Source of the DNA: Anaeromyxobacteraceae bacterium
GTDB lineage: Bacteria; Myxococcota; Myxococcia; Myxococcales; Anaeromyxobacteraceae
Assembly: GCA_047602405.1 (NCBI GenBank)
Contig: JASGHJ010000002.1
Span: 1,536,001 to 1,600,000 of the forward strand
Length of the DNA: 64,000 bases
Reading direction: 5' to 3'
Shown: in pieces, positions 24,412-54,739 of the stretch
Numbering within the stretch: the first letter of the stretch is position 1
How the letters are laid out: every line of letters begins with the position of its first letter
Position numbers and translations under genes: made by a program
The notes under the pieces: model-generated
What the model was told of the DNA's origin: nothing
Databases searched by the model: none
The model's input: the letters and a program-made list of their open reading frames with translations, nothing else

Positions 24412-25411
<1,000 letters not shown>

Positions 25412-27992: not shown

Positions 27993-28074
27993 TGCCCAGG
28001 GCGAGATTCGAACTCGCACGCCTTACGGCGCCACCCCCTCAAGATGGTGTGTCTACCAGTTCCACCACCTGGGC
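27993..28074 (-). tRNA. tRNA-Leu(GAG)
   Basis: GCCCAGGTGGTGGAACTGGTAGAC...TT-GAG-GG loop...GTTCGAATC...CCTGGGCA; long variable arm. Confidence 0.95.
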
Positions 28075-28175
28075 CTTTGCTGCCCGGGGCGATGCGCCGC
28101 CCCGTCGAGGAGGGTCGCTTTCTAGCAAAGGACCTCCGCGCACGCAAGCACGCGAAGCGTCCCGGGTGCCGGGTC

Positions 28176-28503
28176 TCAGGCCCCCTCGAGAATCCTTCCG
28201 CTTGCCCTCCACGGTCTTCCAGCGGTCGGCGTCGGGGAGGGCGTCCTTCTTCTCGGAGAGGTTCGGCCACTTCTTCGAGAGGTCGGCGTTGAGCCCCACG
28301 TACTCCGCCCACTTCCCGGGGACGCTCTCCTCCGGGAAGATCGCGCTCGTCGGGCAGGCGGGCTCACAGGCCCCGCAGTCGATGCACTCGTCGGGGTGGA
28401 TCACGAGGAAGTTCGGCCCCTCGTAGAAGCAGTCGACGGGGCAGACCTCGACGCAGTCGGTGTACTTGCACTTGATGCACGGCTCGGTGACGACGTAGGG
28501 CAT
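28176..28503 (-). CDS. fdxA: 7Fe (FdxA-type) ferredoxin (apparent frameshift at ~28191)
   Basis: [18 protein letters not shown] and [12 protein letters not shown]; the corrected end reads KDLEGA*. Confidence 0.92.
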
Positions 28504-29851: not shown

Positions 29852-30054
29852 CGGGTGTCCTCCTCGGCGCGTGGCCGAGCATGTCGTTCGTCCGTGGTCG
29901 CGCGACCGCGCCCGGCCCGAGGCCGGGTACGCACCTGCGCGCAGCGGGGATATACCGCACCGGGGCCCCGCCGGGCACGGTCACGAAGGTCGCGTGGGGA
30001 GGACCCCGGGCCGGGCTTTGCGGGCCTTCCCATCGGGGGGTAGCATCGGCGGTC

Positions 30055-32124
30055 ATGTCGGCGGAGAAGCGCGGCGATCCCCGTGTGCCCGTCGAGCTCC
30101 GGCTGCGGCTGGCCTACGGCTCGGTCGCCGACTTCGTCGAGCGCTGGGCGGTCAACATCTCGCGCGGCGGCGTGTTCATCCGGACGCTCGAGCCGTGCGC
30201 GCCCGGGACCGAGGTGCTCCTCGAGATCACCCTCGCGTCCGGCGAGCCGGTGATCCACGGCCGCGGGGTCGTCCGCTGGACGACCGCGCCGTCCGCGCCG
30301 GGCGAGCCCGCGCAGGAGCCCGGGATGGGCGTGAAGTTCCTCGCGCTCTCGCCCGGGTCGCAGGCCCTCGTCGACGCGGTCGTGGGGCGGGGCGGCGACG
30401 CGGCCGCGTCGGACGAGCCGCCCCCGGCGCCGCGCGCGGAGGCGCCGCCCGCGCCGCAGGCCGCGCCGCGGCCGAGGAGGCCGAAGGGGCCGGTGGTCGG
30501 CATCGACCTCGGCACCACCAACTCCTGCGTCGCGGCGATGGTGAACGGCAAGCCGCAGGTGCTCGCCTCCCGGGAGGGCCACCGCACGCTCCCCTCGGTG
30601 GTGGCCTACGACGCCGAGGGGCGGCTGCTCGTCGGGCACCCCGCGAAGGCGCAGATGATCGTCAACCCGCGGAACACCGTGTACGGCTCGAAGCGGCTCG
30701 TCGGCCGCCCGTACGCCTCGCCCACCGTCCAGGCGTGCAAGGACCGCTTCCACTACGAGATCGTCCCCGGGCCGGGCGGCGCGGCGGCGGTCCGCTTCGC
30801 CGGCCGGGACTTCTCGCTCGCCCAGGTCGCCGCCCTCGTGCTCCAGGAGATGCGGGAGGTCGCCTCGCAGGCCCTCGGGCAGCTCGTGGAGCGCGCCGTC
30901 GTCACGGTGCCCGCCCACTACAACGACCACCAGCGCCAGGCGGTGCGGGAGGCGGGCCAGCTCGCCGGGCTGCACGTCGAGCGGCTCGTGAACGAGCCGA
31001 CGGCGGCGGCGCTCGCGTTCGGCGCGGGCAGGGGGCTCGATCGCCGCGTGCTCGTGTACGACCTCGGCGGCGGCACCTTCGACGCCTCCGTCCTCGAGAT
31101 CTCCGGGGACGTGTACGAGGTGGTCTCGAGCGGCGGCGACACGTTCCTCGGCGGGGTGGACTTCGACGCCCAGCTCGTCGATCACCTGGTGTGGCGGTTC
31201 ATGCAGGCCTACGGGGCGCCGCCGCCCGACGACCGGGTGGTCTGGCAGCGGCTCCGCGACGCGGCCGAGGAGACGAAGGTGGCGCTCTCCGCGCGCGAGA
31301 AGGCGCTCGCGCGCGTGCCGTTCCTGATGACGTCCCCCGCGGGGAAGGCCATCGACCTCTCGGTCGAGGTGACGCGCTCCGAGCTCGAGGGGCTCACCGC
31401 GAAGCTCGTGCAGCGCACGCTCGACGTGTGCCGCGAGGTGCTCACCGCGAAGGGGCTCGGGCCCGGCGACGTGCAGGAGGTGCTGCTCGTGGGGGGCCAG
31501 AGCCGCATGCCGCTCGTCTGGCGCCGGATCAAGGAGGAGCTCGGGCGCGACCCGTCGAAGGGCGTCCACCCGGACGAGGCGGTCGCGATCGGCGCGGCGC
31601 TGCTCGGCGACTCGGAGAGCCGGATCGACTCGGTCGTGCTCATCGACGCGCTCGCGATCGGCATCGGGGTGGGGCTGCCCGGCGGCCGGATGGTGCCGGT
31701 GCTGCCGCGCAACACCCGCCTCCCGGCCTCGAAGGTGCACGAGCTCCACACGACGCACGACGGCCAGACCGAGCTCGAGCTGCACGTCTTCCAGGGCGAC
31801 GCGCCGCGGGTGGAGGACTGCGAGTACCTCGGCACCGCGCGCGTCGCCGGGCTCCCCGCCGCGCAGAAGGGCGCGGTCCGGGTCGCGGTGGAGTTCGCGC
31901 TCGGGCAGGAGGGCATCCTCTCGGTCCACGCGCGCGAGCACGGCACCGGGCGGGCCACCGAGGTCCGCTTCGCGACGCTCGACACGCCCGAGTCGCTGCG
32001 CGCGAAGCTCGGCCTCGAGCGGGCGCCCGGGGCGCCCCCGGGGGCCCGGCCCCTCGATCCGACCGCCCGCAAGGATCACGTGAAGCCGGGCATCCTCGGC
32101 CGCATGTTCGGGAGCAGGAAGTGA
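30055..32124 (+). CDS. PilZ-like (TIGR02266)-Hsp70 fusion chaperone
   Basis: KRGDPRV..NISRGGVFI..PGMGVKF, then GIDLGTTNS, NEPTAAA, DLGGGTFD and HPDEAVA; no helical lid. Confidence 0.92.
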   Translation: MSAEKRGDPRVPVELRLRLAYGSVADFVERWAVNISRGGVFIRTLEPCAPGTEVLLEITLASGEPVIHGRGVVRWTTAPSAPGEPAQEPGMGVKFLALSPGSQALVDAVVGRGGDAAASDEPPPAPRAEAPPAPQAAPRPRRPKGPVVGIDLGTTNSCVAAMVNGKPQVLASREGHRTLPSVVAYDAEGRLLVGHPAKAQMIVNPRNTVYGSKRLVGRPYASPTVQACKDRFHYEIVPGPGGAAAVRFAGRDFSLAQVAALVLQEMREVASQALGQLVERAVVTVPAHYNDHQRQAVREAGQLAGLHVERLVNEPTAAALAFGAGRGLDRRVLVYDLGGGTFDASVLEISGDVYEVVSSGGDTFLGGVDFDAQLVDHLVWRFMQAYGAPPPDDRVVWQRLRDAAEETKVALSAREKALARVPFLMTSPAGKAIDLSVEVTRSELEGLTAKLVQRTLDVCREVLTAKGLGPGDVQEVLLVGGQSRMPLVWRRIKEELGRDPSKGVHPDEAVAIGAALLGDSESRIDSVVLIDALAIGIGVGLPGGRMVPVLPRNTRLPASKVHELHTTHDGQTELELHVFQGDAPRVEDCEYLGTARVAGLPAAQKGAVRVAVEFALGQEGILSVHAREHGTGRATEVRFATLDTPESLRAKLGLERAPGAPPGARPLDPTARKDHVKPGILGRMFGSRK

Positions 32125-32501
32125 CGGACCGGGGGACCCCGCTCCTCGTGCTCGCCCACGGCGCGAGCTGGGAGGACCGCTACCAGGCGGTCACGGTCGC
32201 TGTCACGGCGGCCTCGCTCGGCGACCGGGTGGTGCTCGCGCTCTTCTTCGACCCCCTGCGGCGGCTCGTGGAGGGCCGGCTCGACGAGGGCGCCCCGCCC
32301 TCGGCGGCCGCCGCGAAGGTGGGCGACCTCGGCGCGGCGCTCGAGGACGGCCGGGCGCTCGGGCTGGAGGTGGTGGCCTGCGAGACCGCGGTCCGGCTCG
32401 CCGGGCTCGATCCGGAGGCCGTGCGCGGGAAGGTCGACCGGCTCGCGTCGCTCCCGTCGCTCTGGGCCTGGGCCCGTCACGGCCGCGTGGCGACCTTCTG
32501 A
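32121..32501 (+). CDS. DsrE/DsrF-like protein
   Basis: GTG overlaps the upstream TGA; AASLGDRVVLALFF and EVVACE Cys motif; ends in F. Confidence 0.75.
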   Translation: MTDRGTPLLVLAHGASWEDRYQAVTVAVTAASLGDRVVLALFFDPLRRLVEGRLDEGAPPSAAAAKVGDLGAALEDGRALGLEVVACETAVRLAGLDPEAVRGKVDRLASLPSLWAWARHGRVATF

Positions 32502-32541
32502 CCTTGCCCGCGCTCCGGGGGCGGGCTATAGGCGGCGGACG

Positions 32542-33264
32542 ATGGCGCTCTCCGGAAAGACGGCGCTCGTGGTCGGCGCGGGTGGGCTCGGTGGCCCGGC
32601 GCTGCTCACGCTCGCGGCGGCCGGCATCGGCCGGCTCGTGGTGGTGGACTCCGACGCGGTCGACACGACCAACCTCGCGCGGCAGCCGCTGTTCGGCGAG
32701 GCCGACGTCGGCGCGCGCAAGGCGGACGCGGCCGCGGCGACCCTGCGCCGGCTCTTCCCCGAGCTCGCGGTGGACGCGGTCGACGACCGCATCACCGCGG
32801 GCAACGCCGAGCGGTACCTCGGCGCGGCGGACCTCGCCCTCGACGGCACCGACAACTTCGCCTCGAAGTTCGCGCTCTCCGACGCGGCGATGCGGGTGAA
32901 GAAGCCCCTCATCCACGGCGGCGTGCTCCGCACCACCTTCCAGATCCTCACCATCGCGCCCGCGGGCCTGGGCGGCTGCCTCCGCTGCCTGTTCGAGGGG
33001 CCGCCGCCGGACGGTGCGGTCCCGGCGTGCGCCGACGCCGGCGTGCTCGGGGCCCTCGCCCAGGCGGCCGGGAACCTGATGGCCGCCGAGGCGATCCGCC
33101 TGCTCGAGGGCGAGCGGGGCGCGTACGAGGGGCGGCTCCTGACCTACGAGGCGAGGAGCGCGCGCGGGCGGCTCGTGCTCGTTCGGCGCCGGCAGGACTG
33201 CCCCGGCTGCTCGCCGGCGGCGCTCGCGCCGAAGGCGGCGACCGCCGGGGGGACCGCGGCGTGA
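32542..33264 (+). CDS. ThiF/MoeB (E1-like) adenylyltransferase lacking the N-terminal helix
   Basis: GAGGLG, D..DTTNLARQ, KA, DGTDNF, CLRC, CADAGVLG and CPGC motifs. Confidence 0.92.
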   Translation: MALSGKTALVVGAGGLGGPALLTLAAAGIGRLVVVDSDAVDTTNLARQPLFGEADVGARKADAAAATLRRLFPELAVDAVDDRITAGNAERYLGAADLALDGTDNFASKFALSDAAMRVKKPLIHGGVLRTTFQILTIAPAGLGGCLRCLFEGPPPDGAVPACADAGVLGALAQAAGNLMAAEAIRLLEGERGAYEGRLLTYEARSARGRLVLVRRRQDCPGCSPAALAPKAATAGGTAA

Positions 33265-33527
33265 GCGCGGCGCTCGACCTCACCGGCTTCGCCTGCCCGA
33301 TGACCTGGGTGAAGACCCGCATCGCGCTCGACCGGCTCGGGCCGGGCGACCGGCTCGCGGTGCTGCTCGCCCGCGGCGAGCCCGCCGACAGCGTGCCGCG
33401 GAGCGCCGAGGAGGAGGGCCACCGGGTGGTCTCCCGCGCGGCGCTCGGCGGCGGGGCGACGTTCGAGGTCGTCATCGAGAAGGCGGCGGCGGAGCGCCCG
33501 CAGCCGGGAGGCATCACGTGGCCCTGA
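33261..33527 (+). CDS. TusA/SirA-family sulfurtransferase
   Basis: LDLTGFACPMTWVK...SVPRS..EGH; overlaps both neighbours. Confidence 0.88.
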   Translation: MSAALDLTGFACPMTWVKTRIALDRLGPGDRLAVLLARGEPADSVPRSAEEEGHRVVSRAALGGGATFEVVIEKAAAERPQPGGITWP

Positions 33528-34213
33528 ACGATCTCCAGGTGGCGCGGTACGCGCGCCAGCTCCTCGTGCCCGGCTTCGGCGAGGCGGTCCAGGAGCGGCT
33601 GCTGCAGGCGCGGGTCTGGGTGGTGAACGCCGACGCCACCGCCGCCGCCGGGCTGGTCGCCCTCGTGCAGGCGGGCGTCGGGCGGATCTGGCTCGACGAC
33701 GACGAGCAGGTCGGGCCGTCGGACCGGGTGGGGTGGCTCTTCGGGCCCGGGGACGTCGGCCGCTCGCGGGTCGAGGCCGCGGTGGAGGCCCTCGGCCGCC
33801 TCTCGCTCCAGACCGCCATCGAGAAGAAGCCGGTCGGCGGCGTGCCGACCGCGGCGATCGTGTTCGCGTCCTCGGTCCCGATGGGCATCGGGGCAGGGGA
33901 CGTCGCGCGCAAGGCCGGCATCCCGCACGTGGTCGTGGAGCCCGACGCCGAGGGCGGCGCCGTGGTCTCCATCCCGCCCGGCCAGCCCTGCTTCACCTGC
34001 GGCCGGTCGGTCTCCGGGGTCGGGCGGCCGGCCCAGGCCGGCATCGCGGCCCTGTCGGCGCTCGCGGCGACCGAGCTCCTCCTCATGCTCGCCGATCCCC
34101 CCCAGGCGGTCGGGCGCCGGATCGACCTCGTCCGCGGCGTCCCGCACGTCCGGCCGACCGTCCGGGTGGCCGGCTGTGCCTGCGGCGGCGGGGCGAGCGC
34201 TCCCCCCGCCTGA
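33518..34213 (+). CDS. Degenerate ThiF/MoeB-family protein
   Basis: RYARQLLVPGFGEAVQERL, AGVGRI, CFTC and CAC; no GxGxxG loop. Confidence 0.82.
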   Translation: MALNDLQVARYARQLLVPGFGEAVQERLLQARVWVVNADATAAAGLVALVQAGVGRIWLDDDEQVGPSDRVGWLFGPGDVGRSRVEAAVEALGRLSLQTAIEKKPVGGVPTAAIVFASSVPMGIGAGDVARKAGIPHVVVEPDAEGGAVVSIPPGQPCFTCGRSVSGVGRPAQAGIAALSALAATELLLMLADPPQAVGRRIDLVRGVPHVRPTVRVAGCACGGGASAPPA

Positions 34214-34412
34214 CCGCGCCCGCGCGGCCCGGGCGCGCGTTGCCGGCGCGTGAAGCCGCGCGTTGACGGTCAGAGAAGCGGGTCCGTGTCGACCCAGGCG
34301 GCGTCCGGGGCGATTCCGTCGGAATCACGCCAGGATCGCAGCGACTCCGCCTTGGAGATCCGGCGACTCCCGGTTATACTCCGCGGCCGACGTCGGGCAC
34401 CGGGAGGACGGA

Positions 34413-35114
34413 ATGGAGCTGCAGCGGGGCAGCGGGTTCGTGATCTGGCTCACCGGGATGAAGCGCGCGGGCAAGAGCACGCTCGCCGCGCTGCTCGCGA
34501 AGCGGCTCCTGGCCGCGGGCCACGAGGTGGAGCTGCTCGACGAGGACGGCGCCGCGTCGGTCCTCGTCGAGGGGCTCGGGATGTCGAAGGACGACCACGC
34601 GAAGGCGGTCGCCCGCATCGGCGTCGTGGCGAAGGCGGTCGCGAAGCTGGGCGGCGTGGCGGTCTGCGCCGCGCTCTCGCCCTACCGCGACGCGCGCGAC
34701 GGGCTGCGCCGCGAGGCGCGCCGGTTCTGCGAGGTGTTCGTCGACTGCGAGATGGAGGCGCTCCAGAAGCGCGATCCCGAGGGGCTCTACCGCCGCGCCC
34801 TCGCCGCGGAGATCACCCAGGTGCCGGGCGTGGACATCCCCTACGAGCCGCCCGGGCACCCGGAGGTCGTCGTCCGCTCCGACCAGGTGTCGCCGGAGGA
34901 GGGCGCCCAGCGCGTCTTCCAGGCGCTCGTGGACGCGCGGCTCATCGGCCCGACCGAGTTCGGCCGGCTGACCGGCGGGCTCCGCCCGAAGCGCGGCAAG
35001 CCCGCCGCGGCGAAGCCGGGCGCGAAGGGCGCCGGCGCGAAGCCCGCGACGAAGGGCGCGAAGAAGGCCGCGGCGAAGAAGCCCGCGAAGCCCGCGAAGG
35101 GCAAGCGCCGCTGA
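34413..35114 (+). CDS. Adenylyl-sulfate kinase-like protein with Lys/Ala/Pro-rich tail
   Basis: FVIWLTG..AGKST, SPYRDAR, EVFVDC, RDPEGLY and PGVDIPYEPP; TATACT -10 box at 34375. Confidence 0.85.
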   Translation: MELQRGSGFVIWLTGMKRAGKSTLAALLAKRLLAAGHEVELLDEDGAASVLVEGLGMSKDDHAKAVARIGVVAKAVAKLGGVAVCAALSPYRDARDGLRREARRFCEVFVDCEMEALQKRDPEGLYRRALAAEITQVPGVDIPYEPPGHPEVVVRSDQVSPEEGAQRVFQALVDARLIGPTEFGRLTGGLRPKRGKPAAAKPGAKGAGAKPATKGAKKAAAKKPAKPAKGKRR

Positions 35115-35176: not shown

Positions 35177-36037
35177 ATGACGGCAGGCCCCGAAGATCTC
35201 GAGGCGGTGCGCCGCGGCTCGGCGGACCGCCTCGCGCGCATGCGGTCCGCGCTGGCGGGCCTGGACGGCGCGCTCGTCGCCTTCTCCGGCGGCGTCGACT
35301 CGACCTTCGTGCTCGCGGTCGCCCGGGAGGTGCTCGGGGACCGCGCCGTGGCCCTGACCGCCCACTCGCCCTCCGTCCCCGCCGCGGAGCGCGAGGAGGC
35401 CCGCCGGCTCGCCGCCCGCCTCGGCGTGCGCCACCTCGAGCGCACGAGCCGCGAGGGCGACGACCCCCGCTACCGCGCGAACCCGGTCGACCGCTGCTAC
35501 TTCTGCAAGGACGAGCTCTACCGGCTCTGCGAGGGGGTGGCCCGCGAGGAGGGCCTCGCCGCGATCCTCGACGGCTTCAACGCCGACGATCACCGCGACC
35601 ACCGCCCGGGTCGGCGCGCCGGGCTCGAGCACGGCGTGCGCTCGCCGCTCTCCGAGGCGGGGCTCACGAAGCTCGAGGTGCGGGCCTGGAGCGCCGCCCT
35701 GGGCCTGCCGACCTGGGACAAGCCGCAGATGGCCTGCCTCGCCTCCCGCATCCCGTACGGCACCGAGGTCACCCCCGAGCGGCTCGCCCGCGTCGAGGCG
35801 GCCGAGGCGGCTCTGCGCGGGATGGGCTTCCACGATCTGAGGGTCCGCTACCACGGCGACCTCGGACGCGTGGAGCTCGGCGAGGCCGAGCTCGAGGAGG
35901 GCTTCCGGCGTCGCGGGGAGCTCGTGGCCGCGGTGAAGGGGGCCGGCTTCAAGCTCGCCGTGCTCGACCTCGAGCCCTTCCGGTCGGGCCGCATGAACGC
36001 GCTCGCCGGCGTCGCGCTCCCCGTGGTCGCGCCGTGA
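35177..36037 (+). CDS. larE: LarE-family ATP-dependent sulfur transferase
   Basis: AFSGGVDS PP-loop; NPVDRCYFCK, DHRPG, SPL and WDKP.MACLASRIPYG motifs. Confidence 0.9.
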   Translation: MTAGPEDLEAVRRGSADRLARMRSALAGLDGALVAFSGGVDSTFVLAVAREVLGDRAVALTAHSPSVPAAEREEARRLAARLGVRHLERTSREGDDPRYRANPVDRCYFCKDELYRLCEGVAREEGLAAILDGFNADDHRDHRPGRRAGLEHGVRSPLSEAGLTKLEVRAWSAALGLPTWDKPQMACLASRIPYGTEVTPERLARVEAAEAALRGMGFHDLRVRYHGDLGRVELGEAELEEGFRRRGELVAAVKGAGFKLAVLDLEPFRSGRMNALAGVALPVVAP

Positions 36038-54575: not shown

Positions 54576-54654
54576 GGCGGGTGGGTACCGATACACGCGC
54601 CCGGGAGGGACCGGCAAGGCAAAATGGACCGGCGCCGGGACCCGGGGTCTGTTG

Positions 54655-54739
<85 letters not shown>

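Follow-up and report, generated by a model that had tools for sequence, protein, structure and literature searches.

A reciprocally degenerate ThiF/MoeB pair in Anaeromyxobacteraceae as a probable two-gene, one-site E1 of the sulfur-carrier type

The E1-like enzymes MoeB and ThiF of E. coli each form a homodimer that contains two active sites (PMC12355090). The window analysed here, a stretch of 64,000 nucleotides from the genome of an Anaeromyxobacteraceae bacterium (contig JASGHJ010000002.1), carries two linked genes of this family that have lost complementary motifs: gene A keeps the catalytic site and has no N-terminal arginine-finger helix, and gene B keeps the helix and has no site. The two proteins share a fold, and A/B fusions into single chains occur. 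The locus raises the question of whether A and B are the two halves of one enzyme. In the reading that we consider probable, they form an asymmetric heterodimer with one site, in which A would carry out the chemistry, B would complete the dimer and lend its R13, and TusA, encoded between them, would deliver sulfur.

Gene A (32542..33264, plus strand) encodes a protein of 240 residues from an ATG at 32542 and is a ThiF/MoeB-family adenylyltransferase with intact motifs (PF00899, E 2.7e-58, 197 bits against a cut-off of 28.1). The preliminary description of the locus had ascribed to it a full adenylation site, zinc motifs and the cysteine of a CADAG motif, and all of these can be located: GAGGLG at 12-17, NLARQ at 44-48, K60, DGTD at 101-104, CLRC at 146-149, C163 within CADAG, and CPGC at 220-223. 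R47, K60, D104 and C163 align with E. coli MoeB R73, K86, D130 and C187, residues whose roles are set out in PMC13139853 and PMC12355090. The Pfam match, the Gly loop, the equivalents of Arg73, Lys86 and Asp130 and the two CxxC pairs place A in the ThiF/MoeB E1-like superfamily. Across 37 aligned A proteins from several families, G12, G14, G17, D38, N44, R47, Q48, K60, D104, C146, C149, C163 and C220 are invariant in all 37, and dN/dS is 0.06-0.18 in each of six pairs.

What A does not contain is R[YFW]xR[QH]. The N-terminal segment of about 27 residues that bears the arginine finger is missing, the Pfam match starts at model position 21, and the alignment with E. coli MoeB and ThiF begins at their residue 28-30. 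In the AF2 model (pLDDT 93.9) the first strand is reached at residue 7. A is thus not a canonical homodimeric MoeB or ThiF, having no RYxRQ segment of its own, and it scores under every NCBIfam MoeB/ThiF equivalog cut-off. Nor is it a canonical E1 of the eukaryotic type (SAE, NAE, UBA1, BilD), with its 240 residues and no insertion relative to MoeB.

A mis-called start as the source of this truncation is rejected on two grounds. The 139 open codons upstream of A hold no RxxR[QH], which bears out the earlier statement that the helix is absent, and a promoter-like element, TTGCCC-N17-TATAGG (32504..32532, plus strand), lies 9 nt before the ATG. Its TTGCC and TAT are the same in all 11 upstream regions aligned from the genus, although a strict consensus promoter scan does not call TTGCC-N17-TATA at this place. 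Since the conserved element directly precedes the start codon, the start of A looks real; an mRNA from this element would be near-leaderless. Upstream of the element, an open reading frame for 126 residues (32121-32501) is conserved before A in the family and has a CxxA motif and no Pfam or NCBIfam match; it may be DsrE-like. It is preceded by a gene (29881-32124) for an Hsp70 fused to a PilZ/TIGR02266 domain.

Gene B (33518..34213, plus strand) starts at a GTG at 33518 preceded by GGAGG and encodes 231 residues. Profile, AF2 and Foldseek analyses agree on a catalytically degenerate ThiF paralogue that keeps the RYARQ helix. The motif stands at residues 10-14, and the profile aligns RYaR to RYNR14 of MoeB, so that R13 of B corresponds to R14 of MoeB. 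NLxRQ, DxTD, an equivalent of C163 and the Gly loop after strand 1 are all missing, as had been described; with Gly loop, NLxRQ and catalytic Asp gone, B is not an active adenylyltransferase. The claim that B also keeps its zinc cysteines stands for the first pair (CFTC at 158-161) and needs correction for the second, which is CAC at 220-222, a CxC and not a CxxC; a CxxC is kept in just 29 of 37 B homologues. That B belongs to the ThiF/MoeB superfamily is seen from its PF00899 match (46 bits), from hhalign of A against B (98.6% over 185 columns) and from its AF2 model (pLDDT 88.4, helices 5-15 and 22-30), which Foldseek matches to ThiF/MoeB at TM 0.80 and E 1.9e-14. GC3 is 0.97-0.98 for A, tusA and B alike.

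The best-conserved part of B is exactly the segment that is missing from A. In 37 of 37 aligned B proteins R13, Q25 and G53 are invariant, and A184, in the long C-terminal helix that we take to be the dimer helix of MoeB, is kept in 97%. When the B profile is searched against 1.84 billion representatives, 113 of the best 150 matches have no active motifs, and 110 of these 113 keep the N-terminal RxxR. The same profile finds the inactive subunits of eukaryotic E1s (SAE1, E 3e-13; APPBP1, E 6e-9) ahead of the active ones (SAE2, about 1e-4; UBA3, 2e-5), whereas A matches SAE2 and UBA3. The trans arginine is kept in B (R13, 37/37) and absent from A, which is the motif pattern of a heterodimeric IAD/AAD design.

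Between A and B, as originally noted, lies tusA (33261..33527, plus strand; PF01206, E 4.8e-16), which overlaps the stop of A and the start of B and encodes a TusA/SirA-type sulfur carrier with a CPMT motif and Cys12. Two conserved neighbours follow on the plus strand: a CysC-like adenylylsulfate kinase (34413..35114; PF01583, E 1.8e-41; TIGR00455 over cut-off), with a promoter-like site at 34353-34380, and a LarE sulfur insertase of the SGGVDS, CxxC...C type (35177..36037; TIGR00268 over cut-off and motifs). In other families the operon is fuller, in the order cysK-like, A, tusA, GG-ended carrier, B, cysM, JAMM, cysC, larE, and its genes have been lost lineage by lineage; the carrier, CysM and JAMM are present at the locus in relatives such as L047, L051, L053, L075 and L118. 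The genus of the window keeps just A, tusA, B, cysC and larE there. A comparison system for the relatives' operon is the CysO/CysM/Mec sulfur-assimilation pathway, and the full operon would probably feed cysteine synthesis of this type. The window locus itself is not a CysO/CysM/Mec-type operon, with carrier, CysM and JAMM absent from it. Counted over 55 loci near the pair, TusA is found in at least 47, CysC in 48, LarE in 47, JAMM in 30, the carrier in 19 and CysM in 12, all of them lower bounds because some loci are short. Several of the operon carriers bear a short tail after the GG, which would fit maturation by the JAMM protein. Alongside the larE kept by the pair, larC is present in five of five genomes checked.

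If A and B are subunits of one enzyme, they should occur together, and the co-occurrence across genomes that the preliminary description had proposed as a check turns out to be near-strict. An adjacent B is present for 61 of 62 intact A genes without the arginine segment examined across Myxococcota: 56 of 57 from a survey of 65 loci, which were chosen from profile hits and include kin that are not independent, and 5 of 5 further loci. Within the survey, a script found B in 54 of 55 cases and two were added by hand, G037, for which the motif that had been flagged is outside the gene, upstream of it, and G069, which has an EGTD variant; the 57 leave out G040 (contig edge), G141 (full-length E1) and six decayed copies. 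The exception is G047 (95% complete), where an intact A without the arginine segment sits in a carrier-CysM-JAMM operon and no B was found. The converse, B without A, was seen in none of the Myxococcota examined, except two contig-edge cases. A draw of 24 relatives within the genus gave a B orthologue in 19 (55-96% identity), with A beside it in 18 and B at a contig start in one; five had neither gene. The complete listing of another class (17 genomes) has A in eight, each with an adjacent B (8/8), a full-length MoeZ alone and no B in seven, and a fragment or nothing in two. In G100, the RxxR of B is followed by a frameshift. These genome-context data are from Myxococcota; a Binatota cluster in the Atlas is a lead only.

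Natural controls show matched gains and losses. In G141 the same operon contains a full-length E1 (with RHSRQ) and B is absent. Both partners have decayed in G166 and G173: NLxRQ, the Asp motif and the Cys are gone from A, and the RxxR segment is gone from B. In the family of the window, however, a decayed A stands beside a B with RxxR in G009 and in second copies in G021, G002 and G142, so the RxxR can survive where the site of the partner no longer works. Such apparently doubly dead A/B pairs, second or sole, with a B that keeps RxxR, were seen at L040 (G021), L042 (G002), L056/L041 (G017), L112 (G142) and L057 (G009). Three genomes, G177 (a single contig, 100% complete), G033 and G038, have no ThiF-family match over cut-off other than A and B. 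Each of the three encodes a free ThiS ending in VAFVGGG, adjoined by thiG in G177 and G033; A, with or without B, is therefore the only candidate ThiS activator in these genomes.

Six of the best 150 matches to the B profile are A/B single chains. They comprise three B-A fusions (P0036, P0077, P0112), one A-B fusion (P0043) and two A-TusA-B fusions (P0127, P0133), the latter in the gene order of the window. In all six, the B part contributes the single RxxR and the A part the single NLxRQ, and the A part has no helix of its own. P0112 occurs on four contigs, with two members, and P0133 on two; each of the other fusions comes from one contig and could, as an isolated case, be an artefact of assembly. 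Looking for longer homologues returned none, although this search was weak by the tool's own note. When the B part of P0112 served as query, the 120 matches listed out of 594 included no other fusion, the sole one flagged, P0151, being a cluster member of P0112 itself. In a quick tree, A genes without the arginine segment cluster (two to three label changes against about 15 in shuffled data), and five of the six fusion A domains fall on their side (87% SH-aLRT), as do two full-length E1s; all trees are quick trees with weak deep support. Other fusions are seen in relatives, namely B-JAMM or carrier-B chains (L073, L074, P0021, P0026, P0003) and A-carrier or A-TusA chains (L047, L048, L049, L126-L130).

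The design of an active and an inactive E1 half is already known from SAE1-SAE2, NAE1-UBA3, yeast Tcd1-Tcd2 and the single-chain bacterial BilD. E. coli MoeB-MoaD and ThiF-ThiS (PDB 1jw9, 1zud) have the fold and catalytic residues of A and the fold and R14 motif of B; they are homodimers with two sites, whereas here two genes are involved and just one site can be active. In SAE1-SAE2, in NAE1(APPBP1)-UBA3 and in the IAD-AAD of UBA1, an inactive partner likewise has the N-terminal arginine segment and the active partner does not, and the IAD-AAD order of UBA1 is also that of the B-A fusions. In contrast with these, A/B has no FCCH/SCCH insertions or UFD and no recognised E2, and its context is sulfur transfer; convergence is the default reading of the likeness. 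Bacterial BilD, from type II BilABCD, combines IAD and AAD with an Arg9 supplied by the IAD (PMC10557695). Unlike A/B, it consists of one chain, has a CYS domain and an E2, and belongs to phage defence; its match to A is weak (E 3.6e-5). The Tcd1-Tcd2 pair of S. cerevisiae is a ThiF-type heterodimer whose inactive subunit gives stability and a non-essential arginine finger (PMC13139853). It differs in being eukaryotic, of the TcdA branch, directed at tRNA and made of full-length paralogues without reciprocal truncation. The Ubl/JAB/E1/SirA operons in rows 4c and 4e of Table 1 in Iyer et al. 2006 also combine a carrier, a JAB protein, a rhodanese-less E1, SirA/TusA and an APS kinase; as described there, they have one E1-like protein, and an inactive partner is not mentioned. 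The literature consulted, which includes PMC10557695, PMC1779556, PMC13139853, PMC12355090, PMC11354881 and PMC9283937, gave no account of a bacterial active/inactive ThiF pair encoded by two genes; the work of Burroughs et al. 2009 on the E1-like superfamily may bear on novelty. The present analysis adds genomes in which A/B is the sole E1, controls with matched gains and losses, A/B fusions and a module that persists without its carrier.

How might such a pair work? Binding of A to B, catalysis and the part of TusA can be pictured from the chemistry of MoeB/ThiF and SAE1/SAE2 and from gene context. A would bind ATP-Mg, through its Gly loop and R47, K60 and D104, together with the carrier; B would complete the dimer, with R13 lent to the phosphate site of A; and the Gly-Gly at the C terminus of a ThiS/MoaD-type sulfur carrier would be the likely target of adenylation. 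A persulfide on Cys12 of TusA may then take the place of the rhodanese domain of MoeZ and convert the adenylate to the thiocarboxylate. With the site of B itself dead, A would no longer have needed its own helix.

The preliminary description had gone further and proposed an obligate active/inactive heterodimer. Co-occurrence, selection, matched gains and losses, sole-E1 genomes and fusions uphold the complementary pair, and the word obligate, as argued from the trans arginine, is too strong in view of G047 and of the biochemistry of relatives. According to PMC13139853, the finger (MoeB Arg14, ThiF Arg11) is not essential, TcdA has none, and in yeast Tcd1 it is again non-essential, yet Tcd1 is required for the stability and activity of its partner. 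The arginine argument alone therefore does not make A/B obligate, and B may matter mainly as a dimer scaffold. A homodimer of A could, by the same token, be active, and on this possibility rests the view that A is an ordinary homodimer without a finger, like TcdA, and B a co-inherited pseudo-enzyme with another job, whether regulatory or as an adaptor that holds the carrier, CysM or the JAMM protease. The G047 genome, with A and no B found, speaks for it, as do the B-JAMM and carrier-B fusions. We nevertheless hold it to be unlikely, since B persists in a genus whose locus has no carrier, JAMM or CysM, does not occur in G141, whose E1 still has its helix, has lost its own helix where A is dead (G166 and G173), and conserves best the very segment that A lacks. 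A functionless B, whether pseudogene or duplicate in decay, is scarcely credible: a mean column identity of 29% across families and some B proteins of just 90-130 residues might suggest it, but dN/dS is 0.10-0.19 in all six pairs, so that purifying selection acts on B and the idea is already largely refuted, and the three invariant residues, retention across several families and classes and a confidently predicted, intact fold point the same way.

A further possibility accepts the heterodimer and assigns it another output than cysteine, thiamine or molybdopterin synthesis, either SAMP-like protein conjugation or the supply of sulfur to the neighbouring LarE of the [4Fe-4S] type. One of the operon carriers narrowly exceeds the SAMP1 cut-off, and the likeness of the JAMM protein to desampylase stays below cut-off; LarE accompanies the pair far more often than CysM or the carrier in the (lower-bound) counts given above, and TtuA, a similar enzyme, is described in PMC9283937 as receiving sulfur from a thiocarboxylated carrier. 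Set against this, among the genes recognised in the loci none is E2-like, T. maritima LarE is reported to be fed by IscS, and in the window cysC-larE has a promoter-like site of its own. We regard this assignment as very improbable, and it would alter the output and not the heterodimer.

Which carriers, then, would the heterodimer of A and B serve in the source genome? The window contains no ThiS/MoaD gene, as had been reported, and all three matches in the genome lie elsewhere: a MoaD-MoaE fusion, a ThiS-ThiG fusion and a free carrier by a BNR-repeat gene. Because the carrier, cysM and JAMM genes have been lost from the locus in this genus, A-TusA-B likely serves carriers encoded elsewhere. 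In the MoaD-MoaE and ThiS-ThiG fusions (L007 and L008) the GG is internal, so both would need cleavage. The free ThiS-family protein (L009:1378-2867 and L103) ends in SGG beside the BNR-repeat protein, and no E1 was recognised in the stretch around it. Elsewhere in the genome a JAMM gene stands beside an Hsp70-like gene (L083), and a full-length ThiF (L001), which could serve the genome's carriers, and a TcdA-like gene are present; a rhodanese-fused MoeZ was not found.

On a broader view, bacterial sulfur-carrier E1s may have independently run through the eukaryotic series from homodimer to two-gene heterodimer to IAD-AAD fusion, with A-TusA-B, in this lineage, as a stand-alone three-gene thiocarboxylation machine that is the sole E1 in some genomes; we lean towards this account, with rather less assurance than we attach to the heterodimer itself. 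A two-gene E1 with reciprocal losses, of which full-length, split, decayed and re-fused states are all alive, would be a minimal system for the origin of the IAD/AAD asymmetry of eukaryotes, and one in which the contribution of the trans arginine and of the inactive half could be tested. For annotation, short myxobacterial genes labelled 'ThiF family' are in many cases likely to be subunits and not pseudogenes, and a 'MoeB' beside a short ThiF gene may be inactive if expressed alone.

Other features of the window were seen in passing. The gapA gene (24412-25411) appears frameshifted near its start and occupies two frames, and a ferredoxin open reading frame (28039-28503) seems to extend beyond the usual end; both are likely assembly errors. 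Two tRNA-Leu genes lie on the minus strand, at 27993-28074 and 54654-54739.
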